Assembly: GCA_963726255.1 (NCBI GenBank) | Contig: CAVSBL010000002.1 | Span: forward strand, 896,001-960,000 | From: Candidatus Bathyarchaeota archaeon | Lineage (GTDB): Archaea > Thermoproteota > Bathyarchaeia > 40CM-2-53-6 | DNA: 64,000 nt | Reading direction: 5' to 3' | Shown: piece after piece, positions 2,066 through 28,469 of the stretch | Layout of the letters: every line of letters starts with the position of its first letter | Position numbering within the stretch: the first letter of the stretch is position 1 | Notes under the pieces: model-generated | What the model was told of the DNA's origin: nothing | What the model saw: the letters and a program-made list of their open reading frames with translations, nothing else | The model's database searches: none | Position numbers and translations under genes: made by a program

Positions 2066-2521
2066 TGCGAACAGATCCGAGGAGACATTGAACACGCTCC
2101 TTGAATCGTCTGGACGATAATCAATTAGTGGCGAAGGGTTTCCTGAAGGCATACAAAACCCAGACGATAAGGCTTCCATAGAGGAGAAGCGTAATCTGTG
2201 CGGAGTGCTGTACGAGGAGCCCAGTGAAACCCAACTTTCATCGTTGCGGGGTTCGGGGCGTAGTTTGATAGGTAGTTCGCATATAGAGAATTTAGAGTAA
2301 TGAAAACATGTCGTTTGACCCCCCAAGAATGGCTGCCAGCGCACGCTTGCGGAGGTGGGTAGGGGAATGGTGCAGTCTCCTGGGTCAAACGAGCTTGATT
2401 TTGCGGCTCGCGCTCATGCCCGGTCAATCATGCGTAATCAGTTTGTCATGTAGTGGTGCGACCATTGTGGCTCACTACCATTCCAAACAAAGACCCTTCC
2501 GAAAATATAGCGTAGCTTCAC

Positions 2522-2552
2522 TGTGTGTGCGCACCACTATAGCCACATAGAG
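2522..2552 (+). repeat. dispersed ~27-bp repeat, copy A
   Basis: TGTGTGTGCGCACCACTATAGCCACATAGAG aligns ungapped to copies at 3556, 17254(-), 27274, 28202. Confidence 0.7.
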
Positions 2553-2581
2553 TAGTATCCGAACCTCCCGCCTTTCGGTCA

Positions 2582-3445
2582 TCAGTCTCGAAGGAATTCT
2601 CTGAGTGTCTTCAGGTAGTTTTCCTTCTCATCCCACATTGTGAGGTGCCCGCTATTCTCAAAGACTACAAGCTTTGAGCCAGCAATTCCTCTGTGGATGG
2701 TTTCCGCGACTTTCGGGGTGACTTCATCGTACTTGCCCACCGTCACCAATGTTGGGACCTTGATCTCCCGCAGCCGAGCGGTGATATCCCAGTCTTTCAG
2801 GTTCCCAACGATCGTGAATTCGTTAGGTCCATTCATCGTCCAATAAACTGGTATGCTCATATCATCGAATGCCCGTTTAACTTCGTCAGGCCAGTCTGGT
2901 AATCTGCAAACGAAGTTTCTGTAGAAAACCTCAACAGCCTTTAGGTATTCAGGGTGCAAAAAGGCGTAGCGCGCCTCATACTTGACGAGTGTGTCTCGAA
3001 CATCTCTCGGCAGTGTCGCTTTGAGCCGGTTCATTTCCGCAATTGTCTCTGGGATACTCGCCATGCCGCCTGCGATAATGAGTTTCTTAATGTTGGTCTG
3101 ATACCTCAACGCATACTGTAGTGCCAGCGCCCCACCGTAAGAACTGCCGAAGAGATTGACTTTGCCGAGGTTCATAGCCTTCCGAAAACCTTCGACCTCT
3201 TCGGCGCCATGCTCGATCGTGAAGAGGGATGTGTCCTTTGGCTTCTCCGACGCTCCGACGCCTAACTGATCATACATGACTACCTTGAGCTTGTCATCTC
3301 CGAGTTCACCCAGCGACAAGAGATATTGGTGGGTTGCTCCTGGGCCGCCATGCAAGCAAAGCAGAATCTCCTCTCCAGTTCCGAAAATCTTGTAGAACAA
3401 CCTGAACCCTCTTACTTCGACAAACCCGCTCTGCGGAGAAGTCAT
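2582..3445 (-). CDS. pip: proline iminopeptidase family (tricorn-interacting F1-like) alpha/beta hydrolase
   Basis: HGGPG, YDQLG, GSSYGG nucleophile, MNGPNEF motif. Confidence 0.9.
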   Translation of the reverse strand: MTSPQSGFVEVRGFRLFYKIFGTGEEILLCLHGGPGATHQYLLSLGELGDDKLKVVMYDQLGVGASEKPKDTSLFTIEHGAEEVEGFRKAMNLGKVNLFGSSYGGALALQYALRYQTNIKKLIIAGGMASIPETIAEMNRLKATLPRDVRDTLVKYEARYAFLHPEYLKAVEVFYRNFVCRLPDWPDEVKRAFDDMSIPVYWTMNGPNEFTIVGNLKDWDITARLREIKVPTLVTVGKYDEVTPKVAETIHRGIAGSKLVVFENSGHLTMWDEKENYLKTLREFLRD

Positions 3446-3546
3446 GACCAGATCCTTGGATTATCTGGCACTTACATCTCTAAGTTAGCTGTTTTGGCGA
3501 TGTCAACCGTATCTGCGTCTCAGACAGATGCTGCGTAAGGTAGCAG

Positions 3547-3587
3547 TTCTGGTTATGTGCGCACCATTAGACCCACACACACCAGAA
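3547..3587 (+). repeat. dispersed repeat, copy B (imperfect inverted repeat)
   Basis: TTCTGGTTATGTGCGCACCATTAGACCCACACACACCAGAA; TTCTGGT/ACCAGAA outer arms. Confidence 0.8.
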
Positions 3588-3898
3588 TTCCGGATTCTCA
3601 AAGAATCATGGTCTGGGTCACGAAAATGGAGGTCGGCTCAAGGTTTGCCCAAACTAGAAATCGAGAAGGCTGAGGAACTTATCACTTGGAACACGTTCAC
3701 TCCACTATTAAGGCTGGACAAAGAGGCCAGTGAATTTCACCACCCAAGTCAACAGAACCGTCTTTCTTGAGGTCCAGCGAGGCTGATTCTAGCGCTGATT
3801 CTTCGTCATGTGAGTAACAGATGGGCACCGAGCAGGGCGATATTCGCAATGTCTTTCAATACCCAAACCTTAGCGCGTTTAGCTAGAGTGTTCCGATT

Positions 3899-4423
3899 AT
3901 GCCAACCCCACTACCTGACGTTCAGATTCCTAGCGAGGTTCCCATCGCTATGCATTCCTTCTCTAATTACTTCAAGGGTTTCGAGAAAATTCCGGCTGTC
4001 AGGGAGATTTTCGGGCCGGAGACTGAGAAGGTTCTCTCCGAGCTTAGGGTCGAGTTCTTCAGCTCCAAGTTCGGGTACATGGGAGTCAGCGATGAAGACG
4101 GCCACCTAATCGTCAGCGCGTATTACCTGCGCAATGGCGACCCAGTAAGCAAGTACCTGGACGTGGTCCACGAGCTTGTGCACGTTCGACAGTTCAGGGA
4201 AGGGAAGCCGCTGTTTGATGAGAACTTCGAATACCATGACCGGCCGACGGAGCTTGAAGCCTACAAACATTCGTTAGGGGAAGCCCGCAGGCTCGGCATG
4301 TCCGATGCGCAGATCTTCGAATACCTGAAGGTGGATTGGCTAGACGAGGACGAGGTCCGAAAGCTCGCCCGAAACCTCGGCGTAACCCCGCCAAAACGAA
4401 CCCGCGGGGAACGCGTACGGTAA
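3899..4423 (+). CDS. hypothetical protein with HExxH zincin-like motif
   Basis: VVHELVHVRQ...PTELEAY. Confidence 0.7.
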   Translation: MPTPLPDVQIPSEVPIAMHSFSNYFKGFEKIPAVREIFGPETEKVLSELRVEFFSSKFGYMGVSDEDGHLIVSAYYLRNGDPVSKYLDVVHELVHVRQFREGKPLFDENFEYHDRPTELEAYKHSLGEARRLGMSDAQIFEYLKVDWLDEDEVRKLARNLGVTPPKRTRGERVR

Positions 4424-4544
4424 TGGCAAGGCACTCGAATGTTGAAGTGATCATTCGGGCGGTGTCTGTTTGAACACCAGTTCGATTGGGATATCTTTTC
4501 GTTTCGCGTTAAAGTAGTCTACAGCGTAGATTGCTTCAGGCTTC

Positions 4545-5006
4545 TTGGAAGGGTTGAGGAAAATTTGTGATGAACATGGTTGCCTGCTGATTTTTGATGA
4601 GGTCAAGACGTGCGGCAAATTCTACGGCGGAGCCGAGGACGCTTTCCATGTGAAACCGGACCTCAAAGTGATGGGTAAAGCCGTAGCCGGCGGGTTACCT
4701 CTCTCGGTATTGGCAGGAAAGAAATCCATCATGGAACAGATCATGCCCGGCCAAGTTGCGCATGCGGGGACGTTCAATGCGAACTGGCGTGATTTTCTCG
4801 AGGTAGATTTCGGTAAATGGTACACGATGTATGCTGCAATGCTCAACCGCGGCATCATCCCAATGGGCACGGGCCCTGATGAGCAATGGACAATTTCAGT
4901 CCAACATTCGAAGGAAGATGTAGAAAAGTATCTCGAAGCGTTCAAAGAAGTCGCTAAGGAAATCAGCCAACCCTCACAGGCGGTCCCGCTGGTCGAAGCA
5001 CTTTAG
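4545..5006 (+). pseudogene. class-III aminotransferase (GSA-aminomutase-like) fragment, 5'-truncated and internally deleted
   Basis: LLIFDEVKT, MGKAVAGGLP, HAGTFNAN then jumps directly to the C-terminal segment; N-terminal half absent. Confidence 0.75.
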
Positions 5007-5025
5007 CACCGGTATGGCGCCGCAC

Positions 5026-5823: not shown

Positions 5824-5907
5824 TCTCTGCAGTGAGGACGGTTTGTATATACGATTGCGGGCCGGTCAAAATTGCTTCGGTTACAGATGCGCAGGTTTCT
5901 GTCCGGG

Positions 5908-6246
5908 TCATGGCGCATAACCATCTAGTATCGGTGTGACTTTCTTTTGCAGCTCTTCAATTAGCTCGGGGTCGTCGCGGTAGTATCGGTCGCGTATGCC
6001 TAGGATTCTTAGTTTGTTCGGGTCACACTTGAAATGGGTGTTAACGTAGTAGGCGTGGACTGGCTCCATCACTAGGACCAAGTCCGCCCACTCGATAAGT
6101 TCCTGAGTAAGAAGCGTCCCTTCCGGGTCGGGCATGACTCCGGCAGATTTCGCCTCCCAGCGGTCATGCCAACCTTGGAAGAGGTTTTCGGCGGTTGGGC
6201 TGCGTTGAATATTTGCCGTGCAAACAAACAGAACGTGGTGTTTCAA
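5908..6246 (-). CDS. low-molecular-weight protein tyrosine phosphatase family
   Basis: LFVCTANIQRSPTAE P-loop, WADLVLVME. Confidence 0.85.
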   Translation of the reverse strand: MKHHVLFVCTANIQRSPTAENLFQGWHDRWEAKSAGVMPDPEGTLLTQELIEWADLVLVMEPVHAYYVNTHFKCDPNKLRILGIRDRYYRDDPELIEELQKKVTPILDGYAP

Positions 6247-6413
6247 GTTGGGTGCGACCTGTATCTTACCCTGTCCAGATAGGCGTCCGCCACGGCTCTA
6301 ATGTTCGCTTTGGTGGAAATGTGGAACTTTCTCCCTTTTAGACTTCTTCTCCAAGCCCCGTTAAATACCTAGACGGTTAATCTACTGCTGTTGATGTGTG
6401 GAGGTGAGTTGAG

Positions 6414-6500
6414 ATGGCGAAGAAACGCAAGGTCAAGATGAAGCTTGCTGAGAGTGGTCACGTTAAAACTGAGACCGGTCAAACCGAATACGTAGCATAA
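6414..6500 (+). CDS. 28-aa basic micro-protein (putative)
   Basis: MAKKRKVKMKLAESGHVKTETGQTEYVA*, SD GGAGGTGA, TTAAATA at 6361, GC hairpin plus T-run downstream. Confidence 0.5.
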   Translation: MAKKRKVKMKLAESGHVKTETGQTEYVA

Positions 6501-6711
6501 GAGCCCTATCGATGGCTGGGGCTGTTGCCCCGGTTTTTCACTTCCTTCTTGTTAGTTTCCGGCTTACTTCTAGACGGAGATGGTGTCCCCTACTCCCAGA
6601 AGATGGGGTCGAGGAGACCCTTCCTTTTGGGATGTGGTTATTCATGTGCGAATGTATAGGGCAGCATCCACATTCAGTTGTTGGGTGGACCCCACCCAAT
6701 GGGAGGCGTGT

Positions 6712-7933
6712 TTAGGCGTAGGCTTCTTCGCCGTGCTGGCTCATGTCGAGGCCAGTGTCCTCTTCCCTGGGGCTTACCCTGATGGGCGAGAAGATATTGA
6801 TCACCCTCAGCAGCACGTATGAGCCTACGAATGCGAAACCCGCCACGATTACGATTCCAAAGAGTTGCACGAGGACTTGATACGAGTTTCCGTAGAACAA
6901 GCCGTTTGGCCCAGCCGCATTTATGGCCGTGGATGCGAAGAGGCCGGTTGCAAAGGTTCCCAACATTCCACCGGCGCCGTGACAAGCGAACACGTCAAGT
7001 GAATCATCAAGCGTAGTCCTAGCGCGCCAGCCCGCCACGAAATTGCATACGATTCCGGCAGCGAGGCCGATGATTATCGAAGGCATGGGACCAACGTAGC
7101 CTGAGGCCGGGGTAATCGTTGCCAGGGCGCATACGGCTCCAACAGAGATCCCTACAGCGGATGGCTTTCCCTTCCGCAACCATTCCGTGAACATCCAACC
7201 CACGGCGCCCCGCGGCTGCCGCTAGGTTCGTCACCACTAACGCGTTAACGGCGACGTTGTCCGCGGCGAGGGCACTCCCGGCGTTGAAGCCGAACCAGCC
7301 AAACCAGAGAATGGCTGCACCGAGAATCACGTATGGAATGTTGTTCGGCCGTTCATTTCTCCTTACTCCTCTCCTCCTGCCGATGACGAGGGCGGCAGCT
7401 GCGGCGGAAACACCAGCAGCCGTATGCACGACCAGTCCTCCGGCAAAGTCCACCACTCCCATCGCTCGCAGGAACCCACCAACGGCCCAGACCCAGTGCG
7501 CGATTGGGGCATAGATGAGAGTGACCCAGAGAACTACGAAAATCAGTAACGACTTAAATCGGATTCTTTCGGCGAAGGCTCCAATGATGAGCGCTGGGGT
7601 TATGGCTGCGAATTTTAGTTGGAAGGCAAAGTACAGCAGTTCCGGGATGGCTGAAGAGTAGCCAGGATTAGGTGCGTATCCAACATTATTCAAGCCTAGG
7701 TCGGCTAAGTTGCCGATAATACCTCCAACAGATGCGCCGCCCAAGGCGAGGGTGTACCCCCAGAGAGCCCACACGAGGCTGATTACTGCGAAAATTGCAA
7801 GACACTGCACAATCGTGGAGACGAGGTTCTTGAGCCTGACGAGCCCGCCGTAGAAGAAGCCCAAGGCAGGAGTCATTATCATTACTAAGGCGGTGGCAGT
7901 CATAACCCACGCAATGTCACCTGAGTTGAACAT
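6712..7933 (-). CDS. amt: ammonium transporter (one apparent frameshift at ~7210)
   Basis: GDIAWVMTATALV, DFAGGLVVH, LWFGWFGFNAGS, DDSLDVFACHG; removing one base from CCCC at 7208-7211 joins the two ORFs. Confidence 0.9.
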
Positions 7934-8150
7934 GTTTGGAGCACCGAGTTGGAGCGTCGGGTTACCGGGATGGTTGTATATTTGGTTAACCATTCCAATA
8001 GTAATTATTCTAAATTGCATCCTGTTCAGCAAATTACTTGCATACTTCTATGCGGCCCAACTCAATAATCATTGGGCAGACCATCTTGGTGGGCCCGGCT
8101 TACACGTGTATAACAACTGCTAGACATCATTTTCTGAGGCTGCGCTATGC

Positions 8151-8669: not shown

Positions 8670-8722
8670 TTCTGCTCACGATAACTAGGTCAGGATGATC
8701 GTTAAAAGCTGGGACAACAGGC

Positions 8723-9679
8723 TTGACGCGGGGCATTGCAAAAGGCATGCTGGAGACGAAACAAGAATACCGTTCAATGGAATCCGTGACCCCAGCTGAG
8801 TACGCGCAGTTTGCTAAGAGAAATAAGAAGATCCAGATCGAGGAAAACGAGGTTCAAATTGGCAAGCCTTGGAGCATATCAAGCTTTGGCCCGCCTAAGG
8901 ATTACGCATACGAGACAGAAACCGTCTGGAGCTTTCCCGACCGCGGTAGCTGGGCTACGCACGTCGGAAACTACCGTGGCAACTGGTCACCATATATTCC
9001 TAGAAACCTAATTCAGAGGTTTACAGAGGTCGGAGATGTAGTACTGGACCAGATGTGCGGTAGCGGTACGACTCTCGTCGAATGCAAGCTTCTGGGCAGA
9101 AACGCAATTGGCGTTGATATCAACCGCGACGCAATAATGGTTGCATTGGACAGGTTGAACTTTTCTTTCGAAACCCTTGACGCCAAATATCCTAGTATTT
9201 CAATTGATACCTATGTCGGCGATGCAAGGAGATTGAATGCTCTACACGATCAATCTATCGATCTGATCGCAACACATCCCCCATACGCATACATAATTCC
9301 GTATGCTCCCCGCATCGAGGGAGACATTTCGGCACTAAGAAAACTGAGCGACTTCCTTAAAGCAGTCCGAGAGGTCGCAGATGAATCCTACCGAGTCCTA
9401 AAACCCGGAAAACACTGTGCGATTTTGATTGGCGATACTAGAAAACACAAGCACTACATTCCTATTTCGTACCGCGTTCTCCAACAGTTCCTCGACTCAG
9501 GATTCGTCCTCAGAGAAGACATAATCAAACGCCAATGGAAGACGAAGACCACGCGAGAGCGGTGGCGGAGTTCGAAATTAGATTTCTACAAAATCGCCCA
9601 CGAACACCTCTATGTTTTCCGAAAACCAGCCTCTGATGAAGAGAGACGGAATTTGAAATTGAGTTCGAAATGGTGGTAG
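8723..9679 (+). CDS. amino (N4/N6) DNA methyltransferase
   Basis: VLDQMCGSGTT (motif I), ATHPPY (motif IV), RVLKPG. Confidence 0.85.
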   Translation: MTRGIAKGMLETKQEYRSMESVTPAEYAQFAKRNKKIQIEENEVQIGKPWSISSFGPPKDYAYETETVWSFPDRGSWATHVGNYRGNWSPYIPRNLIQRFTEVGDVVLDQMCGSGTTLVECKLLGRNAIGVDINRDAIMVALDRLNFSFETLDAKYPSISIDTYVGDARRLNALHDQSIDLIATHPPYAYIIPYAPRIEGDISALRKLSDFLKAVREVADESYRVLKPGKHCAILIGDTRKHKHYIPISYRVLQQFLDSGFVLREDIIKRQWKTKTTRERWRSSKLDFYKIAHEHLYVFRKPASDEERRNLKLSSKWW

Positions 9680-9751
9680 GAGATGAGCAAGAGGCATAGC
9701 CAGTTTGAATCACCCAGATAGAGCGCGGGCAGAACATAGCTTGCTTGGAAT

Positions 9752-10903
9752 TTATGGTCCTTCGGAAACCGCCATGCTTTCTAGCGAAGGTAGCGAACGG
9801 CGAAATAATTCAAGGTTCAAGAGGAATGGATAGTCAGACTTCTCAACTTCCCTTTCTTTTCGTTCAAATTCGAACATTCCGCGAACTGATTTGGCCAGAG
9901 CGAACCATCCTAATCCGTCCGTTACATACAAGAGACGATACCGACCACGGCAAAGCTTGCGTAGCTCTTTGAAATGAGCGACAACTTCACGAATCTTGGA
10001 CATAGAAGTAGTGAAGTAGTTCAGCTCCACCACATACTGAATATGACGATTTGCCAGAAGAACATAATCGAATCTCTTGTCCTCACTCTTCCAAAGTTTC
10101 TCTTTGGTGTACCACCACCCCCTGCCAAGACGCTTGGCGGCTTTCTCCACTTCCCCAAGCTCAGTAATTCCAGATAACTTCGTAAATCGAACTCCCTCAT
10201 CTTCAAGGACATTCTCAATCCTGCGTGCTGCATAGTCTCCTCTGGCACGTTTCACCAATTCGACGTTAACAATTCGAAGGCTGCGACGCAGGGCAGGAAT
10301 GACCTGTTTGTCACGTATCAGTTCTCCAAGATCTTCCGAACCGAGTAGGAAGGTAATTATTCGCTCAGCCACTGAGGCATCATGCTCGATTCTAGACCGC
10401 CATAGTGGCCAGCATGACTTAACAGGCCCCGCATAACGCGAAACTGCTTTCTTGTATGAGGCTAGTTTCTCAAGATCCGTGGGCTGATGTGCAAATGACT
10501 CTCGCCTTAGCCCTACTCTAACTATCTGACTCTGAAATTGAGGATCACTGACCGCCACTGCCTCATAATATACAACCTCATTAAGTCGCGAGTGGTCAAA
10601 GAAGAAATTCACCAATTCCGTGTTTGTGAAGCGGATTTGACGATGCAAATGCATAAGCACCAGAAACAATGACGGTTCCCCTCGAAGGAGAGAGCTTAAT
10701 CTCTTCGCTAGGTTAGCACGGTCTTTTGCTGTTGACTCTTCGTCCTGAACTTTCTGGGCCATGATCCAAAATACTTCTTCGCTCCCGAAGACCTTAGTTA
10801 AGAAAATTGGAAAACTCCATGCGGATTTCTCAATAGAAGTTCCCTCTGCACCAAGGTCGAGCGTAGCGAAGAACTCGACTATCCTCTCTTCGATGTCGCT
10901 CAC
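9752..10903 (-). CDS. DpnII-family type II restriction endonuclease
   Basis: C-terminal KRFDYV...VELNYFTTSMSK...YVTDGLGW matches the DpnII PD-(D/E)xK pattern; GTG start at 10903 preferred over 10999. Confidence 0.75.
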   Translation of the reverse strand: MSDIEERIVEFFATLDLGAEGTSIEKSAWSFPIFLTKVFGSEEVFWIMAQKVQDEESTAKDRANLAKRLSSLLRGEPSLFLVLMHLHRQIRFTNTELVNFFFDHSRLNEVVYYEAVAVSDPQFQSQIVRVGLRRESFAHQPTDLEKLASYKKAVSRYAGPVKSCWPLWRSRIEHDASVAERIITFLLGSEDLGELIRDKQVIPALRRSLRIVNVELVKRARGDYAARRIENVLEDEGVRFTKLSGITELGEVEKAAKRLGRGWWYTKEKLWKSEDKRFDYVLLANRHIQYVVELNYFTTSMSKIREVVAHFKELRKLCRGRYRLLYVTDGLGWFALAKSVRGMFEFERKEREVEKSDYPFLLNLELFRRSLPSLESMAVSEGP

Positions 10904-11078
10904 GGCCAGGATCCCTGAACAAGAAGCTTGATAGTGGACAGTACCGTCACGCTGGAGAAAACACTTTCGACTGGACGCCGTCTTCGGGGAAGGCAACAAA
11001 TTCTTTGGACTGGAAGATGCTGAAAAGATACGAGCCTGCGAATACTTGTCTGTACTAATCTTGCTTTCGTGCAGTTGA

Positions 11079-11115
11079 ATGGGGCCGTAATCTAGCCTGG
11101 TCTAGGACATTGCGT
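11079..11115 (+). repeat. 5'-half fragment of tRNA-Gly (att-like remnant)
   Basis: 35/37 nt identical to 29548..29584, including the first intron bases. Confidence 0.9.
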
Positions 11116-11129
11116 GAATATGCTCAGGG

Positions 11130-11282
11130 TCAGCTCTTTCTCTTCTCCTTTTCCAATTCCTCACGGAGGTGTTTCAGAGCGTAGTTGATTGCGTGGCTGT
11201 AACTGCCAAACCTTAGGTCCTTAATCTCCTTGGCCACCCACGAGTAGAGCTCGTCCTCGAGCGTGATCTGAAGTCGCTTCAT
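11130..11282 (-). CDS. ribbon-helix-helix (CopG-like) regulator, 50 aa
   Basis: MKRLQITLEDELYSWVAKEIKDLRFGSYSHAINYALKHLREE; below the ORF-track cut-off. Confidence 0.8.
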   Translation of the reverse strand: MKRLQITLEDELYSWVAKEIKDLRFGSYSHAINYALKHLREELEKEKRKS

Positions 11283-11295
11283 TCGGAATCTAGGC

Positions 11296-11366
11296 TATTG
11301 TGTATACGTTAATGTTTTATGCTGAATTATACACCTATACAGAACTATACACATCATGTATACATT
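11296..11366. promoter_or_regulatory. divergent promoter with repeated TATACA boxes (putative RHH operator)
   Basis: TATACA at 11328, 11336, 11346, 11359; inverted TGTATA at 11301 and 11357. Confidence 0.55.
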
Positions 11367-13110
11367 TCATGAACACACTGTCAAGACCGAGCCATTCAAT
11401 TCGTTCACCCTAGAACACAGGATCCAAGATTACCTTTCTCACGAACTCCCTTATGGTGAGTACCACGGGTTCTCCGCCTCCATTGAAGGTTGGCCCAATG
11501 TTGCGAGACTGGTTCGACGACTTGCGTACGTTGCGGAGTTTTACGTTGCTACAGAGACACGAAGCGCGGAGGAGCTACTGAAGGAAATCTTCTCCGATGC
11601 GCTTAACCAGGTTAATGTCCAAACATTTGTTCACGGCAATCTTGTTGCTTTCCGTTTCATAACAAATCAGTACTTCCTAGAGAAATCTCAATACGTCTCA
11701 AAACTGAGCCGAGACGAAATTGAGGTTGATCGAAACATCGAGGCTCTAATGTCGTTCCCAGTAGAGTCAATATATCGAATACCTGCCAGTGCAACGATGC
11801 AGGTCGGAAAACGGCTTGAAGATTACTTTACAATTCGAGAAGAGCCCTCGCTGCATTTGACGCATTATTTGCATCCCTACAAAGGCAAGTTTCATCCCAA
11901 GATGATTCGGGCACTACTCAACTATGTGTACCCGGATGATAATGGCCTAGTCATGGACAATTTCGCTGGAAGCGGGACACTCCTTGTCGAAGCTGTACTA
12001 ATGGGACTCGATAGCCTCGGATTGGAAATCAATCCACTTTCAGCTCTAATGTCCCAAGTAAAGTGCGAAGCACTAAACTTTGAACCGAAAGAGCTCAGAC
12101 ACGCAATCGACCGCTACCTAGAGGCGCTTGAAACTCTCATCACCGAATACAAGACACTGCTCAACGGTGACACATTGCTTGTTCAAACCAGTGTCAACCC
12201 GACTGAAATAAAGGAAATCAAGCAACAACTTCCGAAGAAAGTCTGCGTATCATTCAATGATGAAATGTCAATCGACGCAGCTGTCGTCGCTCGGAACCTC
12301 ATTAGGACATATTTCCCCGAGAAATACCGGAACTTCCTATTGTTAGCAGTGAGCGGCACGATAAGCGATGTGGCACGGAGAACGAAAAAAGACTTCGTAA
12401 CGGCGTTAGAGGAGAGGGTGAACGACCTCTATTTGCGGATCTACTTGTTCCACAAGTTGAATGAGAAATTGAAGATCGACTTGGGTAATTCACGTTGTTT
12501 CGTCGGAGATACACGTGACATGGGAAGAACGTGCTTCACTCTGGAGGGCAAGCCCCTCAACGTTGAAGGAGAAACCATTGATGCTATAGTGAATTCGCCT
12601 CCATATTCGACTGCATTGGATTACATTAGGAACGATCTTCCCCAGCTTACCATACTTGGGCTCGTTCCGTCCCTAGAGCGTTTAGAGAAGGACATGATGG
12701 GAAACCCGAACCTCACATACTATCCTGCTGAGATGTCAGAGGAGATAAAGTCCAACGCGACTGAGTTCTCGACACTGCCAGAATACGCTAGGAACATAAT
12801 CAGACAAATTCTTGATGCTGGGAGGGTTAAGGAGGCAATACGTACTTACAAGTTCTTCAAAGACATGAGGCTAACTCTCAGAGAAATGCATAGGGTACTC
12901 AAACCAAACGCGAAGGCAGTCATAATCATCGGCAACAATCACTACAAACTGAACGGCGCGATTGAGGAAGTAAAGAACGATCTGGTGATTGTCGAGATGG
13001 CGAAGGAGGTAGGCTTCTCGCTCGACCGTTCAATCACCCGAAACCTCGAGAAAAGCATGTCTGGAGAGATTCGGTACGAATCAATAGTAATTCTACAGAA
13101 AACGAGGTGA
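11356..13110 (+). CDS. DNA methyltransferase (probable N4-cytosine, SPPY)
   Basis: HPYKGKFHP, MDNFAGSGT, VNSPPY, RVLKP. Confidence 0.88.
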   Translation: MYTFHEHTVKTEPFNSFTLEHRIQDYLSHELPYGEYHGFSASIEGWPNVARLVRRLAYVAEFYVATETRSAEELLKEIFSDALNQVNVQTFVHGNLVAFRFITNQYFLEKSQYVSKLSRDEIEVDRNIEALMSFPVESIYRIPASATMQVGKRLEDYFTIREEPSLHLTHYLHPYKGKFHPKMIRALLNYVYPDDNGLVMDNFAGSGTLLVEAVLMGLDSLGLEINPLSALMSQVKCEALNFEPKELRHAIDRYLEALETLITEYKTLLNGDTLLVQTSVNPTEIKEIKQQLPKKVCVSFNDEMSIDAAVVARNLIRTYFPEKYRNFLLLAVSGTISDVARRTKKDFVTALEERVNDLYLRIYLFHKLNEKLKIDLGNSRCFVGDTRDMGRTCFTLEGKPLNVEGETIDAIVNSPPYSTALDYIRNDLPQLTILGLVPSLERLEKDMMGNPNLTYYPAEMSEEIKSNATEFSTLPEYARNIIRQILDAGRVKEAIRTYKFFKDMRLTLREMHRVLKPNAKAVIIIGNNHYKLNGAIEEVKNDLVIVEMAKEVGFSLDRSITRNLEKSMSGEIRYESIVILQKTR

Positions 13111-13116
13111 ACAGCC

Positions 13117-13230
13117 ATGCCTGCGAGAAGTAAGAAGAAAATGCGCAAGGAGGATGTCGCAAAACTGGTTCATGAAGTCGTTGGAGAAGGTGAATTAGTC
13201 TTCATAGATCCAGAAGGAGTAGCCGGCTGA
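13117..13230 (+). pseudogene. 37-aa ORF after the MTase, possibly a truncated partner gene
   Basis: SD GAGGTGA overlapping the MTase stop; ends abruptly next to the amt fragment. Confidence 0.35.
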
Positions 13231-13266
13231 AGATTCGCACGGTCTCGGTTATCATCTGCACGGCGT

Positions 13267-13638
13267 ATGGTGTTCACTGTGGCAGCGGGCGTCGTTTGTA
13301 ACTATGTGGCGGGTTGGTGTGCGAGAACACGACTAGATGACTCGCTTGATGTATTCGCCTGCCATGGCGCAGGTGGAATCTTGGGAACAATAGCGACGGG
13401 GATCTTTGCCTCCGCCGTCATCAATGCGGCTGGCCCCAACAGACTACTGTACGGGAACATGTACCAATTCATAATACAAGTATTCGGAGTAGTTGTCGTG
13501 GGATTTTTCGCCTTCGTAGGCTCTTACATGCTGTTAAGAATTATCAACGTCTTCACGCCCGTAAGAGTTAGTCGCACGGAAGAGGATGCGGGCCTGGACA
13601 TAACGCAACACGGCGACGAAGCGTACACAAACAAGTAA
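13267..13638 (+). pseudogene. amt: 3' fragment of an ammonium transporter
   Basis: LDDSLDVFACHGAGG...EEDAGLDITQHGDEAY, closely similar to the C-terminus at 6712..7203, opposite strand. Confidence 0.85.
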
Positions 13639-13670
13639 TCATGAGGCAAGTTGAACTAAAGTCAAACAGA

Positions 13671-13697
13671 TTCCTATTCTACTTGTGCGCACACACA
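13671..13697 (-). repeat. dispersed repeat, partial copy (left arm plus core)
   Basis: minus strand TGTGTGTGCGCACAAGTAGA, right arm divergent. Confidence 0.6.
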
Positions 13698-13761
13698 AAA
13701 AAATAAGTTGTAGAAGTATTCTATTTGTTGGCAGCTTGAAGAAAACGGCCGGTGATCTAGA

Positions 13762-14262
13762 GTGGAGAATGAACGCTCGGAGAAAGTCACCATTGACAGA
13801 GTTGAAAAAGATGAGTTGCAAAGCATTCTCGCGTTGCTTGATCAATGCGGACTTCCAAAAGAGAACTTAGAGCCTCATTTATCTACGACACTGGTTGCGC
13901 GGAACGATAGCAGGGTCGTCGGATGTTCAGTTGTGGAACTGTATGATGAATGTGCCTTGCTCGCATACGTCGCCGTTGAACAGTCATTCCAGAGACGAGG
14001 ACTAGGACAGCGCCTCACAAAAGAGGCACTAGATTTAGCAAAGCATCGTGGCGTCGGAACCGTGTATTTATTGACTGAAACGGCAGGCCCATTCTTTTCC
14101 AAACTGGGCTTCGAGTCTATCCCACGTTCTGATGTTCCACAGGAGGTTCAGCATTCATTCGAGTTTACCACATTGTGCCCAATTACCGCACAAGTCATGA
14201 GGACTTCATTGAAGGAAGAAATCGGTCACCAGCCCCATCCAGTTCAATCAAGAGAGAGATGA
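13762..14262 (+). CDS. GNAT N-acetyltransferase, ArsN2-like
   Basis: QRRGLG, YLLTETAGPFF, FEFTTLCP. Confidence 0.8.
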   Translation: MENERSEKVTIDRVEKDELQSILALLDQCGLPKENLEPHLSTTLVARNDSRVVGCSVVELYDECALLAYVAVEQSFQRRGLGQRLTKEALDLAKHRGVGTVYLLTETAGPFFSKLGFESIPRSDVPQEVQHSFEFTTLCPITAQVMRTSLKEEIGHQPHPVQSRER

Positions 14263-14391
14263 ATCCGCCACCAAGAATGACCCCTAGACTAGACTTCGGT
14301 TTGAATCCGAATCAGGTTCTAGCCAGATGTTCGCGGTCAAGATTTTTGTGCTTGAGTCGCGTCTCACGGATAGGAGTCTTCGACCAGTTCC

Positions 14392-15279
14392 ATGAACGCT
14401 AGATCCGTCGGGATTCTGTCTGTGCTTCTCGCGAGTCTTCTGTGGGCTTTGGAGCCTGTGCTTGCGAAGCGTTCGTATCAGAACTCAGATTTTCAGCGTA
14501 CTCTTGCCGTCAGAGCGATCCTCGTTACTCTTACGGCGTTGCTCTATGTTGTGATGACGAACAGAGGGAATCTTAGGATCGACAGACGCCAATTGTCGGC
14601 GCTTGTGTATGTTGCGTTTGCTGCGAATGTCTTCGGCGATATCGCATACTTCCTTGCTTTGACCCGAATCCCTGTAGTTAATGCTGTGCTGATTGGTAAT
14701 ATGCAGCCCATCTTCATAGTGATGATGGGGTTCTTGGTTCTCAGAGAAGAGAGGCTGAGCAAGTTTGACTACCTAGCGATCGTCGTTATGATGACAGCGG
14801 GAATTCTCATAGCAACTCGAAGCTTAGAGAACTTGATGGCGTTCAGGCTAGGAACGTACGGTGATTCGGTTGTGCTTTCAGCAACTGTCGCCTGGTCAAC
14901 AACCACTATCGCGTTTAGAAAATATCTGAAAGAAATGAACGCAGGCGTCGTAACGTTTTACGGCTTCCTGTTCGCTTCTCTCGTATTCGCAGCTTACCTC
15001 GTGTCCTCTTCAGGATTTAGGGCTGTGAACGTGTATCAGCTCATGATTGGGATTGTGGTTGGTATCGGCACGATTCTTTACTTTGAGGGCCTGAAGCGGA
15101 ACAAGGCTGCAGAAGTATCCTCTCTCGAACTCTCAACACCCCTCTTCGCCGCAGTCCTCGGCTTTCTTGTCTTGGGTGAGCTGGTCACTCAGATTCAAAT
15201 CGTTGGAATGTCTCTCCTCCTGATAGGAGTATTCCTCCTGTCGAGAAGAGAAGAACTAGTTCCTTATCGTTGTTGCTGA
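14392..15279 (+). CDS. DMT/EamA family transporter
   Basis: About 10 TM, duplicated EamA repeats (LVLREERL, LVLGE). Confidence 0.85.
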   Translation: MNARSVGILSVLLASLLWALEPVLAKRSYQNSDFQRTLAVRAILVTLTALLYVVMTNRGNLRIDRRQLSALVYVAFAANVFGDIAYFLALTRIPVVNAVLIGNMQPIFIVMMGFLVLREERLSKFDYLAIVVMMTAGILIATRSLENLMAFRLGTYGDSVVLSATVAWSTTTIAFRKYLKEMNAGVVTFYGFLFASLVFAAYLVSSSGFRAVNVYQLMIGIVVGIGTILYFEGLKRNKAAEVSSLELSTPLFAAVLGFLVLGELVTQIQIVGMSLLLIGVFLLSRREELVPYRCC

Positions 15280-15499
15280 GTATCCCCTCTTGAACTCCAT
15301 ATTCAAGAGGTGTGGCTCAAACGGAATGATTGCACGTCTAGCTGATTTGTCAAGCTCATTTTCGTGTGATTTCGTGTTCTTGTCTACGTATGGGGAAGGT
15401 AGGGTTGGGAGCGTTAGCGTGTTGCAAGCTTTCGCGTCCACGCAGTGAAACATTTTTCCCCGCGCTCACACCAACAAAACCGTCGTCCGTCAGTCGATT

Positions 15500-15515
15500 T
15501 GTGTGTGTGCGCACC
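15500..15515 (+). repeat. dispersed repeat, left-arm copy
   Basis: TGTGTGTGTGCGCACC. Confidence 0.55.
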
Positions 15516-15598
15516 TGACAGGTACTCATAATACACGAGTCGAAAATCATGCGTGCTGTTCAAATGGTGAAGGGAATAAGGAAATCGTGAGATGTAAT

Positions 15599-17137
15599 AT
15601 GACGCTGGTAATACACGGTTCAGGATTGACCGTTGAAGATGTTGTGCGCGTTGCACGTCATGGCGAAAAAGTGGAACTGCATCCCGATTCTATCAAAAAG
15701 ATCAATTCATGCCGCGCCATGCTTGAGAAAAAAGTTGAAGCTCACGAGGTCATGTACGGTGTCAATACCGGTATAGGCGAATTATCGGAGATAGTGCTCA
15801 ACGATAATCAGGTAAGAGATTTTCAGAGATATTTGATTTACAATCATGCTGCAGGTATGGGCGATCCCATGCCCATTGACTGGGTACGTGGTGCCATGCT
15901 CGGGCGCATCAATGTGCATGCACACGGGAATTCAGGTTGCCGCTTGGCGATTACTCAGACTTTGGTGGATATGTTGAACAAGGGTGTTACGCCTTACGTG
16001 TGCACGAAAGGATCTGTAGGTGCTAGCGGTGATCTAGCACCTATGGCGCAGATTGCTCTGCTCCTGATGGGTGAAGGGCACGCATATCACAAGGGTGAGT
16101 TCTTAGAGGGCCATGTGGCGATGGAACGTGCAGGCATCCCCATTCCCGGACTAGAGGCACGCGATGGTCTGGCTGCCATTAATGGTTCCAATGTGCTTAC
16201 CGCCATGTCGGCCCTAATGATATATGACAGCAACAATTGGCTCAAGCAGGCTGAAATAGCCTGTGCTATGTCGCTGGAAGCGCTGAAAGCCAACCTCAAA
16301 CCGTATCAAGAATTAATTCTTGAAGTTCGCGGTTTCCCCGGTGGCGTCCGCAGCGCGAAATCAATTCGTAAGGTAGTGGCTGGCGGTGACCTGTCTGAAG
16401 GCCGTTTAAAAGTGAAGGTGCAGGATGCTTATTCGATGCGTTCCACACCGCAGGTGATTGGTGCAGCACATGATGCGCTTGCCTTTGCCCGAGTACAGGT
16501 AGAGACGGAACTCAATGGTGTGGGGGATAATCCCATTTTCTTCCCGGACAAAAACCTCGTACTCTCAGGCGCCAATTTCCAAGGTTCGCCCGTTGCTTTG
16601 CCTATGGATATAGTAGGTGTTGCGGTAACGATGGTATGCGTACTTTCCGAGCGCCGCATGAATCGCCTGAATAACCCGGCGCTAAGCGTGGGGCTTCCGT
16701 CCTTCCTGATTAAGGATCCTGGCATGTTCTCCGGGCTGATGCTGAGCCAGTATACCGCTGATATGCAGATTGCAGAACAGCGAATCCTCTGTATGCCGGC
16801 TTCTATACAGTCAATCCCGGCTGCTGCCGACCAGGAAGACTTTGTTTCCATGGGCATGAACACCGCTCTGAAGAATTTCCAGATTCTAGACAATGCATAT
16901 GGTATTTTGGGAATCGAGTTCATGGCTGCTGCTCAAGCCCTTGACTTACGTAGAAAATATGAAACACCATATGAATTCGGAAAGGGAACACAAATTGCTC
17001 ATAACACGATCCGTAAACACGTCGAGTATCTTGATATCGACCGCCCGCTTTATCCCGACCACAACAAGATGAAGGAACTCGTCAAATCATGCGAAATCCT
17101 TGTGGACGTGGAGAAAGCCATAGGTTCCCTGGAATAA
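15599..17137 (+). CDS. hutH: aromatic amino-acid ammonia-lyase (HAL/PAL family)
   Basis: YGVNTG, GSVGASGDLAP (MIO-forming ASG), QDAYSMR, QEDFVSMG; substrate not determinable. Confidence 0.85.
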   Translation: MTLVIHGSGLTVEDVVRVARHGEKVELHPDSIKKINSCRAMLEKKVEAHEVMYGVNTGIGELSEIVLNDNQVRDFQRYLIYNHAAGMGDPMPIDWVRGAMLGRINVHAHGNSGCRLAITQTLVDMLNKGVTPYVCTKGSVGASGDLAPMAQIALLLMGEGHAYHKGEFLEGHVAMERAGIPIPGLEARDGLAAINGSNVLTAMSALMIYDSNNWLKQAEIACAMSLEALKANLKPYQELILEVRGFPGGVRSAKSIRKVVAGGDLSEGRLKVKVQDAYSMRSTPQVIGAAHDALAFARVQVETELNGVGDNPIFFPDKNLVLSGANFQGSPVALPMDIVGVAVTMVCVLSERRMNRLNNPALSVGLPSFLIKDPGMFSGLMLSQYTADMQIAEQRILCMPASIQSIPAAADQEDFVSMGMNTALKNFQILDNAYGILGIEFMAAAQALDLRRKYETPYEFGKGTQIAHNTIRKHVEYLDIDRPLYPDHNKMKELVKSCEILVDVEKAIGSLE

Positions 17138-17253: not shown

Positions 17254-17281
17254 GAGTGTGTGTGGATCTACTGGTGTGCAG
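17254..17281 (-). repeat. dispersed repeat, copy C
   Basis: minus strand CTGCACACCAGTAGATCCACACACACTC. Confidence 0.75.
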
Positions 17282-17395
17282 AGCAATTTGAACTCAACAT
17301 TGTCCGATACTGACCTTAACATTTTCTGTAAGATATGTGATATTCGAAGCGTGAGTCTGACGATAAAGGCTCGCCTGACGATCATCCGGTGTTCG

Positions 17396-21830: not shown

Positions 21831-22026
21831 AAGCTAATGCTTGTGCTGTGAATGTAAATTGCTTTTCGTTCGAACGAAAACGCGGTCGTTTTGCGCGGCT
21901 TCTGTTTGATTTCAGCCAATGGCCGCGAGCATCCGACCCGCCTTGGCATCAGGCCGGAGATGGAAGTGCTGGGCAAGCGAATAAGAGTCTTAAGTAAGAG
22001 TCACAGCCGTTTAAGACTGAAGCCGG

Positions 22027-24941: not shown

Positions 24942-25009
24942 CTGATCCTCTATCTTTAGATTTCTCGTACCGTTTTCCAACCGCCCTTTTGAGTAGCGAG
25001 ACGTAGCCC

Positions 25010-25795: not shown

Positions 25796-25949
25796 TGGCG
25801 TACTGTTTAGTACTTCTTGCATACAAAATCTCAGATGACGAGTGGGTCTAGTTGTCCAGGACTTCAGAGTCTATGCGAGATTGAAATTCTCGGCTTAGCA
25901 TAAGGTCGCCGATCTTGAGTTTGCCGAAGTCTTTTCTGGCTATGGCATT

Positions 25950-26048
25950 GCTTGTTCGGCCTACCAGCATCATTCCTTCAACGCCTAGGTTTAGGATTCC
26001 CGCATTCTGATCTACTAGTTCGCCTGTGGCGGCAGCCATGATCGGCAA
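25950..26048 (-). pseudogene. fragment of an ABC transporter permease (nucleoside/sugar type)
   Basis: AATGELVDQNAGILNLGVEGMMLVG N-terminal signature, then similarity is lost. Confidence 0.7.
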
Positions 26049-26070
26049 GGCTCTAAATTAGAAACCCACC

Positions 26071-26934
26071 TCAATTCAAAATGAATTTTCTTACTGTTTG
26101 AAGATATTCATCCTGTTCCTCCCACATCGGCAGGTGGGCACTATTTTCGAAAATTCTCAATCTTGAACCTTTGATTGCGTGGTGGATTCCTTGTGCGATT
26201 CTTGGGGTCACCTCATCATGCCTACCACCAGTCACTAGTGTGGGAGCAGTAATCTGTGAAAGGCTAGCCTTGAAGTCCAGATTTTTGAGGTTTCCAAGCG
26301 CCGTGAATTCGTTTGGACCCCACATCGTGAAATACACAGGTACGCTTGTTTCGTTCAGTGTCCGAGTCACTTCCTCTGGCCATTGTGGTAATCTACAGAA
26401 GAATTCACGATAGAACACGTCAACAGCCTTCAGGTATTCTGGGTGTGAGAAGGCCCACTTCGCTTCGTACTTCGCAAGAGTTTCCTGAACATCCTTAGGG
26501 AGTAATGTTTTGAGCCGGTTCATTTCTTCGACGCATTCGTGAGTGCTGACCAAGGCGCCAGTAACTATTAGTTTCTTAATGTTCTGTTGGTATTTCAGCG
26601 CACACAATAGGGCTAGCATGCCACCCCACGAGGATCCCATGAGGTTTATCTTGCCAAGGCCAAGGGTCTTCCTGAGTTCCTCGACCTCATCCACGTAATG
26701 ATCGGCTGTGAAAAGAGTGGTGTCAAGTGGTTTCTGTGATTTTCCACAACCAAGCTGATCATACAAAATGACTCTCAGATTTTCATCGCCTAGCTTTGCA
26801 AGGGGGAGCAAATAGTCGTGCATTGCTCCCGGTCCACCGTGGAGACATAGCAGAACGTTACTGCCTTTGCCGAAGACTCTATAGAAAAGTCTGAATCCCT
26901 TGACGATTACATAGGCGCCGTTTTCATTCTCCAA
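26071..26934 (-). CDS. pip: proline iminopeptidase family hydrolase
   Basis: HGGPG, YDQLGCG, GSSWGG, GPNEF; paralog of 2582..3445; SD GGAGGTG. Confidence 0.9.
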   Translation of the reverse strand: MENENGAYVIVKGFRLFYRVFGKGSNVLLCLHGGPGAMHDYLLPLAKLGDENLRVILYDQLGCGKSQKPLDTTLFTADHYVDEVEELRKTLGLGKINLMGSSWGGMLALLCALKYQQNIKKLIVTGALVSTHECVEEMNRLKTLLPKDVQETLAKYEAKWAFSHPEYLKAVDVFYREFFCRLPQWPEEVTRTLNETSVPVYFTMWGPNEFTALGNLKNLDFKASLSQITAPTLVTGGRHDEVTPRIAQGIHHAIKGSRLRIFENSAHLPMWEEQDEYLQTVRKFILN

Positions 26935-27273
26935 TTCCCGACACCTCCTCTATGAGATCGTTAGCTTTCTCACAGGCTTCCATAGTCTGTTGGAGCTCGA
27001 ATCTGTTCCATTCGTCATACTCTATTACCAATGTGCGCCATCCGCTCGATCAAATCATTAGTCAGACTCACAATGAACTAGCCGTCTTTCCTTCCACTCC
27101 TACTACTCCTCATACAAAATAGTTTGACGGTCGATTCACCACTACGGATTCGTTGTAGCTGTTCCGAGCAATGAATATACCAAAACTAGCGATATTTCGT
27201 CTTTTCAGGCAATTTTTGTCCAGACTTTGATGCAAAGCGGGAAGATTGAAGAGATCACAAAAATAGCTCAGAC

Positions 27274-27300
27274 TGTGCGCACGACTAATACGACACACAC
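27274..27300 (+). repeat. dispersed repeat, copy D
   Basis: TGTGCGCACGACTAATACGACACACAC. Confidence 0.7.
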
Positions 27301-27414
27301 GAAAAACCGCAAAAGACTTGAGCAACAGCCGGCGAATACGGATAGTGCCGGGTTGGGATTTGGGCCCGCGAGGCAATTCACTAAGATGCATGCTAGTTCT
27401 CGCACTAGTTCCCG

Positions 27415-28151
27415 GTGAGGAATCGTTTGCCTGATTCTCTTGCGGTCCCCATTCTCAGACAGCTGATTCCTAGTGGTATCGATTACGGATCTTCCTTGCT
27501 CATTGAATTCGAACCCGACTCGATGTGGTATGAAACTTCGATGAGCATCGCAGCTCAAGCAGTGCGGGAAGGAATAAAGACCGTTTATCATGTCTATGCG
27601 CATCTGCCCAGCGGGGGAGGGGTACCTTCAGTCGTTTGGGCTTAGACACCAGGAAGTTGGAGGAACAGGAAGTCTTCGAACTTGTCGACAGCTACACGGT
27701 TCAAACTGGAATCGGCGGACCAGAGAAAGAATACGCCATAACCAAGTCTCTCAAGCTCTCTGAAACAAGCATCTTCTATTCGCAGGCCCTCAAGAGTGGC
27801 AAGATCCCTAAGGATTGGAAACGCTGGTTACACGTGGATGACGACGCAACGATTCAGCTGAAATACAATTCTGAGAGTGCAATAATCGAATTCCAACGAA
27901 CCAGAGGGCTCCCTGTGTTGGCAGCGTATGAGGAGATACAGTTGAATCCGATCTTGAAAGGTGTCGCCTCCGCAGCCTTCTACAAGGAGATGGAGTCACT
28001 CTCGACCGGAGTACTGGACGTCAAGAGCGAAGAGAAAGAGGGCGCCATCGAGAGCTATTTGAGAGTGAGGGCCTTGAGGGGGAAGAAGTTCGACTCACGA
28101 TGGCACCAACTGCAGCTTCAGGATAACGGAGAGGTTGCACTTGCCGACTAG
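27415..28151 (+). CDS. RAD55/KaiC-like RecA-superfamily protein with degenerate P-loop (frameshift at ~27615)
   Basis: [44 protein letters not shown]; break in a G-run. Confidence 0.65.
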
Positions 28152-28201
28152 TTTTCGTGTATGCCCCCAAATTCAGACTGCTGTTCAGGCCTCGATTTAC
28201 A

Positions 28202-28228
28202 TGTGAGCACCATTAGACCCACACACAC
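28202..28228 (+). repeat. dispersed repeat, copy E
   Basis: TGTGAGCACCATTAGACCCACACACAC, 26/27 identical to copy B. Confidence 0.85.
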
Positions 28229-28469
28229 CAAGAACCGGAAATCCACAACCGGCGGTTCTTCACTTGATGTGGACCATTGGTTAATGAGTTGCACCTACTT
28301 GTGCGGCAGAATCTGTAGGTCGAAGCGCCCTCCACCGAATCAAGAGGAAGGAGGCGTTTCATTCCTACTCATGAGCATTTGGAGCACGGAGTACACGAGT
28401 CTTGAAACAGTGTGAGCACGGCCCAAGGTCCAAGTTTATCTCCACGTGCGAAACTCTAGCTTGGACCAA

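Follow-up and report, generated by a model that had tools for sequence, protein, structure and literature searches.

Integron attC sites have an R''-L''...L'-R' architecture with a GTTRRRY box and measure 55-140 bp. The dif and pdif sites are 28 bp long, consist of two 11-bp arms around a 6-bp spacer and are served by the host Xer recombinase, pdif modules being known from Acinetobacter plasmids. Accretion of cis-mobilizable and of integrative and conjugative elements in streptococci (CIME/ICE) leads to tandem arrays by re-use of the site, as does 'gene capture' in archaea. According to passages of two reports, the identity of attachment (att) sites in Thaumarchaeota elements can be only 8 bp (PMC8371274) and tyrosine-recombinase elements build arrays through site re-use (PMC6563490). 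Integrons have been reported in Archaea (PMC9668308). Here we describe a dispersed repeat in the genome of a sediment archaeon, G000 (2.42 Mb, 51% G+C), starting from a stretch of 64,000 nt (G000:C2:896001-960000, the window; positions are window coordinates unless G000 or one of its contigs is named). An initial annotation had described a ~27-bp imperfect palindrome which bounds accessory gene modules and resembles the sites of tyrosine recombinases. Our analysis makes it reasonably probable that the repeats are att-type site-specific recombination sites which are anchored on tRNA 3' ends and form arrays of cassettes of one or two genes.

The existence of the repeat and its status as a family are confirmed. 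Read ungapped, the annotated consensus (TGTGCGCACCAYTAGACCCACACAC) matches 3556(+) with 0 and 28202(+) with 1 mismatch and occurs in 0 of 100 shuffles; its hyphens are separators only, and a consensus with N in their place has 0 matches. Fuzzy matching across the whole genome adds 17258(-), 2526(+) and 27274(+) with 4, 5 and 6 mismatches, respectively, out of 25 positions. All proposed full copies (2526, 3556, 17254, 27274 and 28202) are thereby recovered at 0-6 mismatches of 25. The 11-mer of left arm plus core finds 6 matches in the window versus 1.09 expected. Two of the proposed partial copies, 13671(-) and 15500(+), hold as left arm plus core, whereas the one at ~2450(-) is a 10-nt core match by eye with a weight-matrix score below 8, which leaves five full and two clear partial copies in the window. 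The part from 29 to 64 kb had been described as free of copies. No full site is found there with the weight matrix, but the core recurs at the end of the tRNA gene 29550-29644 and at 32840-32882.

Genome-wide, the 21-nt core CGCACCATTAGACCCACACAC has 69 matches in G000 at ≤5 mismatches and 4 in the reversed genome used as control. A weight matrix of 29 columns yields 87 versus 5 matches at score 12 and 72 versus 0 at score 18. Core matches lie outside open reading frames (ORFs) in 56 of 69 cases, as judged by crude ORF calls covering 85% of the contig. The copies are clustered, e.g. at 438-493 kb, 1350-1359 kb and 1839-1842 kb of G000, and the four small contigs of that genome carry no site. 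For the relatives, we label five genera of one family g1 (including G000), g12, g13, g14 and g15. The repeat is present in 20 of 22 genomes of g1 plus G000 and in 10 of 10 of g15; it was not found in g12 (0/22), g13 (0/1) and g14 (0/3). With ≤2 mismatches the core occurs in 17 of the 18 genomes sampled within the genus and in none of 12 genomes that represent nine other families of the order; the reversed control pattern had no match at all. Near-perfect copies (≤2 mismatches in 21) number twenty to thirty-six in each of many species. Four 17-nt motif strings were matched nowhere in full-text literature, supplements not covered, and a keyword search on archaeal integrases and integrons returned general work only, without a description of this repeat.

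The invariant part of the site is CGCACCA, followed by a variable 3-nt spacer and the right arm GACCCACACAC, often with ACGAAAA after it. Information content of the weight matrix falls at the three bases following CCA, and the spacer is mostly TGA in g15 and YTA in g1. Adjacent G000 sites have the same spacer in 7 of 22 pairs, compared to 3.1 expected by shuffling (P=0.02). Two classes of left arm occur. The class-a arm, (TTTC)GTGTGTG, is the mirror of the right arm and gives the palindromic form. The class-b arm consists of GACGGTTCAAATT, about four bases and TGCY, in a register that matches the T-loop, T-stem and acceptor strand ending ACCA of a tRNA exactly. The class-b arm seems to be a decayed tRNA T-loop plus acceptor strand. 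The register G53-A76 fits the class-b T-arm; the stem, inspected by eye, is paired at 1840842 and 1561417 and unpaired at 449630 and 249652 of G000. The repeat is thus real and far above chance, but only some copies are palindromic, 17254(-) for one having the tRNA-like left arm. The tRNA 3' end in the core, the two classes of left arm and the spread of the family over two genera go beyond what had been annotated.

The organism is an archaeon, its closest named relatives by thermosome being distant Bathyarchaeia MAGs at 60-69% identity. ARAGORN finds 35 tRNA genes in G000 with introns allowed and 7 without, 2 of these 7 with a normal anticodon. The tRNA genes encode CCA. The motif CGCACCA terminates the tRNA of the window, its paralogue at 500.77 kb, two tRNA-Ser genes and tRNA-Gln of G000. 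In G000, the window tRNA runs ...GGCGGCCGCACCA and is joined to the trailer CTTCTTTCC. On contig C180 of G033, a relative which is ~95% identical to G000, GTGTGTGTGTGCGCACCA with its GTGTG left arm is joined to the same trailer CTTCTTTCC, and both genomes are homologous onward from the junction. Behind a second tRNA that shares this end, orthologous loci have four different sequences. In G033 (C198) this tRNA continues with CTAGACCCACACACAC, i.e. a real tRNA plus the right arm of the repeat, and in G011 (C1) with the right arm and two tandem class-b units. G000 and G015 have CATTTCAGACTAGAATC... at this place and G014 yet another sequence. The CATTTCAGACTAGAATC trailer also precedes integrase genes in G002, G032, G003 and G018; on this ground, we take the G000/G015 trailer to be the start of an integrase element.

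A third hybrid is located at the right end of the aromatic amino acid (histidine) ammonia-lyase (HAL) gene, which carries class b in G000 and class a in G033 with the same right arm, the switch falling at CACCA. All three hybrids switch inside CGCACCA, and those at tRNA ends have 7-8 bp of identity common to both partners. Left and right arms are found in G000 in each of the four possible combinations (14 Lp/Rp, 17 Lt/Rp, 18 Lp/R- and 29 Lt/R-, against 0, 0, 0 and 7 in the reversed genome). Such arm swaps support the earlier proposals that the repeats behave as recombination sites and that half-conserved copies are hybrid recombination products, and the hybrid sites are the strongest evidence for recombination. 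The attL-type hybrids (G033 C198, G011 C1) and the attR-type hybrid (G033 C180) are situated at different tRNA loci, and for none of these was a complete attL/attR pair together with an empty site recovered. In the window, direct repeats of the tRNA end flank the 3.2-kb stretch 29645-32840. The region 11.1-29.5 kb is an island at a tRNA hot spot, because in G014 the methylase gene (window 8692-9678) lies only ~1.4 kb from this same tRNA.

Another tRNA was considered as source of the repeat and rejected. The trailer of the tRNA-Ser(GCU) gene resembles a degenerate right arm in G000 and G033 and, again in degenerate form, in G009; at the other loci examined it is unrelated. Two exact copies of its 3' end are seen at G014:C7:29907/37455 (7.5 kb apart) and at G017:C2:330437/409287 (79 kb apart), where G017 has integrase matches near both copies; each pair probably marks both ends of an integrated element. 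The tRNA-complementary strand was also considered as a primer-binding site or part of a retroelement; this idea was dropped, no reverse-transcriptase search being made.

High copy number, intergenic position and partly palindromic form are also expected of a selfish repeat of the type of repetitive extragenic palindromes (REP) or miniature inverted-repeat transposable elements (MITE), which would transpose by itself while homologous or microhomology recombination of the host shuffles the DNA between its copies. A 270-bp indel starting at a site and tandem units ~50 nt apart would fit as well. Some class-a copies can form hairpins of 8-11 bp, and two of seven folded copies surpass shuffles (z -2.5 and -3.0). 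Since the other five are no better than shuffles, the hairpin is not a general property of the sites. The flanks of 57 copies have nothing in common beyond the arms, and neither target-site duplications nor terminal inverted repeats nor conserved internal sequence are found. A Y1 or REP-associated tyrosine transposase (RAYT, PF01797) is missing from G000, the same search matching in 6 of 14 named genomes, and an IS91-type transposase was seen in G009 only. Moreover, the identity of 7-8 bp at the tRNA-end switches is short for homologous recombination. We regard a selfish repeat as quite unlikely.

The sites might also act on their neighbouring genes, be it by binding a transcription factor, as part of a promoter or terminator or as a signal for tRNA-like 3' processing, and be carried along as stress and accessory genes move. 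Strong sequence conservation across two genera would suit such a role, as would the recurrence of TBP paralogues and KaiC-like genes beside sites (three of four and five of nine, respectively) and the position of class-b sites, which lie 3' of a same-strand gene in 18 of 21 cases. Class-a sites, however, occur in all four gene contexts, and neither a fixed distance to gene starts, named beforehand (for core genes) as an observation that would speak for a transcription factor site, nor a fixed orientation to them was seen. Rfam at its gathering score matches only tRNA in the window, and the class-b T-stem is, by eye, unpaired in several copies. A regulatory or RNA element, which would not account for the exchange of arms and the fusion to tRNAs at a single fixed position, we consider very improbable. 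The same-strand bias of class b suggests cassettes with a preferred polarity.

The sites had been proposed to border accessory modules, and comparison with G033 bears this out. Within the window, the blocks homologous to G033 end at a site or tRNA 3' end at 3552, 15502, 17280, 27274, 28236 and 29638, and away from sites at 494/1018, 4531, 9679, 18475 and 19349. Among 56 block ends on eight G033 contigs, contig ends dropped, 13 lie ≤40 bp from a site in either genome as compared to 2.3% of random positions from the same contigs, a count to be read with regard to the choice of these contigs for matching site-rich regions. On these contigs, synteny breakpoints are enriched at sites. Modules move singly. 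The KaiC-like module together with both its sites has different neighbours in G033, single-gene pieces of G000 435-455 kb appear there in reordered arrangement, and other DNA replaces the whole stretch 9680-15501. In G015 the flanks of the pip-like gene are contiguous and lack the gene together with both sites. Single genes are 91-97% identical to G014 and G015 at non-syntenic places, compared to 71-83% for syntenic backbone blocks; HAL of G014 (C40), at 91% and without sites, is among the similar genes. Single-gene modules therefore move between loci and between species. Self-BLAST of G000 finds few duplications, 3 of 68 ends being ≤50 bp from a site versus 0.46% of random positions, which backs recombination weakly. 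In public DNA contigs, three joints of 17250/17264/19349 to 27274/28202/28207 have sides of 20-67 nt with unknown letters between; they were read as repeat cross-matches or a G033-like arrangement rather than as deletions or circles, and speak neither for nor against circular junctions and empty sites.

Features of the window that bear on the repeat, in window coordinates.
Feature	Position	Strand	Details
Degenerate class-a site, 5/25 mismatches	2526..2550	+	32 nt past stop of pip-like gene; score 26.1; kept in G033 C160
Alpha/beta-hydrolase (pip-like) cassette gene	2582..3445	-	Pfam Abhydrolase_1 8.7e-29
270-bp segment, begins 3 nt before 3556 site	3553..3822	+	not in G033: C160 joins 3552 to 3823
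Perfect site, 0 mismatches	3556..3580	+	weight-matrix score 44.7
Copy of 5' part of 29550 tRNA, 37 nt	11079..11115	+	with that tRNA brackets 18-kb variable island
Half site, left arm plus core	13671..13693	-	13683-13693 1 mismatch in 11
GNAT acetyltransferase + EamA transporter module	13762..15279	+	Pfam; flanked by two half sites
Half site GTGTGTGTGCGCACC + unique DNA (attR-like)	15500..15516	+	left border of HAL module; 15506-15516 1 mismatch in 11; homology to G033 C59 begins at 15502
HAL cassette gene	15503..17137	+	Pfam Lyase_aromatic 1.1e-160
Class-b site: tRNA-like arm GAGTTCAAATTGCTCTG, core, right arm	17254..17300	-	G033 homology stops 17280; class a there in G033
Degenerate class-a site	27274..27298	+	left border of KaiC/RAD55-like module; G033 C80 homology begins exactly at 27274
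KaiC/RAD55-like ATPase paralogue, cassette gene	27636..28151	+	no Pfam match itself; clusters with 8 other paralogues
Class-a-like site, 1 mismatch	28202..28226	+	right border of KaiC-like module; G033 homology stops 28236
Intron-bearing tRNA gene	29550..29644	+	ends GGCGGCCGCACCA; Rfam tRNA 48.1 bits, ARAGORN; read as attB-type partner
Partial copy of tRNA 3' end, 43 nt	32840..32882	+	G033 homology stops at 32834

Borders of this kind could also be fossil scars, that is, leftovers of ordinary integrase elements at CGCACCA tRNA genes whose old borders remain visible, with neither a dedicated system nor present activity. That no integrase lies beside any G000 site cluster fits this view, as do the many degenerate copies (37 of 69 matches have 4-5 mismatches). 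At 500.77 kb the tRNA is followed by an arm of a decayed integrase element, with the same trailer as found before the integrases of G002, G032, G003 and G018, a C-terminal piece of an integrase lies 2.3 kb off in G000, and the 11.1-29.5 kb island is bounded by repeats of the tRNA 5' part. Neutral scars, however, would have decayed, while twenty to thirty-six near-perfect copies persist per species despite a backbone identity of 71-83%. G000 and G033 differ at many site-bounded modules in spite of their ~95% identity, and conservation of the arms contrasts with a spacer that differs between lineages. On balance, fossil scars appear unlikely.

For att-type sites the following course of events may be envisaged. 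A site would consist of the right arm GACCCACACAC(ACGAAAA) plus a class-a or class-b left arm. Crossover would take place in CGCACCA, with which several tRNA genes end, and perhaps also in the 3-nt variable spacer. Site-bearing DNA would integrate at the 3' end of a tRNA gene ending CCGCACCA or at an existing site, and repeated integration and exchange would produce arrays of one- or two-gene cassettes separated by full sites. In such an array the first site would be tRNA plus right arm and the last one left arm plus old trailer, and when attP x attB exchange recurred at the 3' end of the tRNA, internal junctions resembling the element's own site would result. Later inversions and transfers would scatter the arrays. 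We infer that a tyrosine-type integrase acting in trans cuts and joins the sites and that the events took place in this order; the system may or may not be active today. The array model would account for the same-strand bias of class b (18/21), for the tandem units of G011 and for the 438-493 kb cluster of G000 on the 3' side of the tRNA at 500.77 kb, where 11 of 15 sites are oriented like that tRNA.

A number of observations weigh against these sites and this model. To begin with, 43 of 56 block ends lie away from sites, on contigs picked for their match to site-rich regions. A right arm directly 3' of a real tRNA was seen in G033 and G011 only, and in 1 of 29 further readable copies of that tRNA end, namely that of G011. 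The sites of the window lie on the 5' side of its tRNA, which a simple downstream-array model would not predict, and tandem sites ~50 nt apart without cargo (871039/871089 and 1774570/1774519 of G000) are unaccounted for. HAL and MR_MLE genes of G014 and G015 are highly similar and have no sites, and a pip gene of 92% identity lies in another context in G004, again without sites; the high identity of cassette genes could come in part from selection and not from transfer. No cognate recombinase, which the initial annotation had placed outside the window, was found. A look for integrase or transposase genes next to the copies had been proposed as a check. None of 112 ORFs beside G000 site clusters matches an integrase or transposase Pfam family, and PF00589, PF01797, PF00239, PF16795 and PF04986 have no match in G000. 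PF00589 integrases are present in 19 of 23 genomes of the genus and tRNA-adjacent at 7 of 13 loci, with a repeat site within ~10 kb at only 3 of these 13 loci in relatives. The one intact recombinase gene detected in G000, by a PHROG scan (phrog_1), encodes a divergent tyrosine recombinase of 499 aa (G000:C2:1967990-1969489, L022:4990-6489). This gene and its close homologues are found just 3' of a tRNA or tRNA fragment ending CGGCCCCACCA, unlike the tRNA of the repeat. Finally, the zinc-ribbon integrase described below has homologues with a site at only 1 of 21 loci.

A negative PF00589 search cannot be relied on in these genomes, because this profile missed the 499-aa recombinase of G000, both as protein and in six-frame translation, although homologues at 36-40% identity carry PF00589. 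In the alignment R217, H325, R328 and H351 are invariant, and Y375 is the candidate catalytic tyrosine. Because its locus adjoins the tRNA ending CGGCCCCACCA, we read it as a probable ordinary integrase of another tRNA. Integrase fragments were seen at 471506-471739 and 498148-498417 of G000, and a degenerate copy without catalytic box is located at ~265.7-266.8 kb. Both the 1.968-Mb integrase and the 266-kb copy were considered as cognate enzyme and set aside, as neither is tied to the repeat. An IMG/VR contig with matching G+C content (L262) provides one lead. On it, a zinc-ribbon integrase (L262:4635-5726) begins at a distance of 270 nt from a class-b site, a KaiC-like gene being found on the opposite side, and this integrase is a candidate for a site-linked enzyme. 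Further candidates are integrases located behind the GGCGGCCGCACCA tRNA, e.g. G002:C46:20248-21216. Homologues of the zinc-ribbon integrase occur in 10 of 22 genomes of g1, 3 of 10 of g15, 1 of 3 of g14 and 0 of 22 of g12. G000 also has two TnpB-like genes, neither of them with sites nearby. Separately, G013:C16:1240-12959 has an unusual series of integrase genes, with six PF00589 matches in 12 kb of the same strand, and the first 20 kb of that contig carry no repeat site.

Several further features of G000 and the window were noted. All four pip paralogues of G000 lie within 2 kb of a site, and a second HAL copy at 977.2-978.8 kb is 90% identical to that of the window. Of the nine KaiC-like paralogues five are within 2 kb of a site, and three other members of the cluster match the Pfam KaiC ATPase. 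The same distance holds for three of four TBP paralogues, with loci carrying TBP or KaiC-like genes near 121, 439 and 1774 kb; at 1773.7-1775.4 kb a TBP and a KaiC-like gene have two tandem sites between them. A 524-bp insertion at 495-1017, not in G033, is bounded by the terminal inverted repeats GGTTCTGTTAAG...CTTAACAGAACC and accompanied by a duplication of 8 bp, TGGAGGCA. It resembles a MITE, with related copies at several places in G015 and G014. An ammonium-transporter gene (6600-8032) is broken into two frames that overlap, one ORF holding Pfam positions 1-237, and a second paralogue is represented by a C-terminal fragment (13267-13638, Pfam 280-399) 5 kb away on the opposite strand; G014 and G015 have intact-length regions matching these pieces. 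Further fragments belong to a class-III aminotransferase (4545-5006, profile 213-292 of 403; G033 has extra DNA there) and a low-molecular-weight phosphatase (5908-6246, profile 1-40 of 144). A restriction-modification cluster at 8723-13110 comprises an N6/N4 DNA methylase, a DpnII-like endonuclease and a second methylase, the 37-nt tRNA 5' fragment being situated between the genes of the latter two. Elsewhere, at G000:C2:128862-130696, a gene with ThiF plus ubiquitin domains neighbours one with a ubiquitin-conjugating (UQ_con) domain, a pair which looks like eukaryote-like ubiquitin E1/E2. The small contigs C1 and C5 of G000 have near-same ORF order and sizes. They could represent strain variants or else a region that was duplicated, and this may bear on the 9% contamination estimate.

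If the repeats are att-type sites, they might be part of an integron-like cassette system native to archaea, with a trans-acting recombinase, an anchor at the universal CCA end of tRNA genes and a boundary site of 25-45 bp in palindromic or pseudo-tRNA form; we put this forward as a tentative and rather doubtful extension. If true, whole genera could draw on a common stock of cassettes with one gene each, among them TBP paralogues, KaiC-like ATPases, hydrolases and transporters, and cassette-style genome plasticity would be possible without integron integrases or attC. The 21-nt core, the defined crossover point and the known tRNA partner would then provide a sequence handle on the exchange of single accessory genes among uncultured sediment and peat archaea, and a class-a site together with a tRNA end would be a testable substrate pair for finding the recombinase. 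As a practical marker, the repeat delimits the flexible genome in two genera. The case also warns that screens based on PF00589 can miss divergent archaeal integrases.

With regard to known systems, the sites are akin in function to the att sites of tRNA-targeting integrases and to the cassette boundaries of integrons and pdif modules, but lack the features by which attC, dif/pdif, REP/RAYT and MITE are defined. The likeness to dif/pdif, drawn in the initial annotation, extends to short sites with two inverted arms which bound small accessory modules and to a recombinase that would be encoded elsewhere. It does not extend to the architecture, since GTGTGTG and CACACAC stand around 14 bp, or at best in an 11-8-11 and not an 11-6-11 arrangement. 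Moreover, site orientation is not alternating (13 of 22 adjacent pairs have the same orientation), and G000 has no Xer-type gene by PF00589. REP elements go with a Y1 HUH transposase, RAYT, whose gene they often flank, and G000 has no match to its profile PF01797. A MITE would share sequence beyond the arms, which the 57 copies do not, the MITE-like insertion at 495-1017 serving for contrast.

The att sites of tRNA-targeting tyrosine integrases are similar in having an identity block at the very 3' end of a tRNA gene, and both hybrid kinds, partial tRNA-end copies and arrays beside tRNAs are found here too. Unlike those, the repeat amounts to ~90 sites per genome with one consensus across two genera and ~25 loci rather than one tRNA, its units have one or two genes without an integrase inside or beside, and palindromic and pseudo-tRNA forms coexist. 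From integron arrays and clusters of attC sites lacking integron integrases (CALIN), it differs by the size of its sites (25-45 bp), mixed cassette orientation, the anchor at tRNA 3' ends and the missing IntI and attI. No GTTRRRY box is seen in the aligned 18 class-a and 21 class-b copies, whose conserved span is 25-45 bp; for IntI, G000 has no PF00589 match, and the IntI-specific insert was not searched for. What the repeat has in common with integron arrays are cassettes of one or two genes with short imperfect-palindrome sites between them, their exchange among close relatives, a recombinase that would act in trans and, for class b, a site at the 3' end of the cassette gene.

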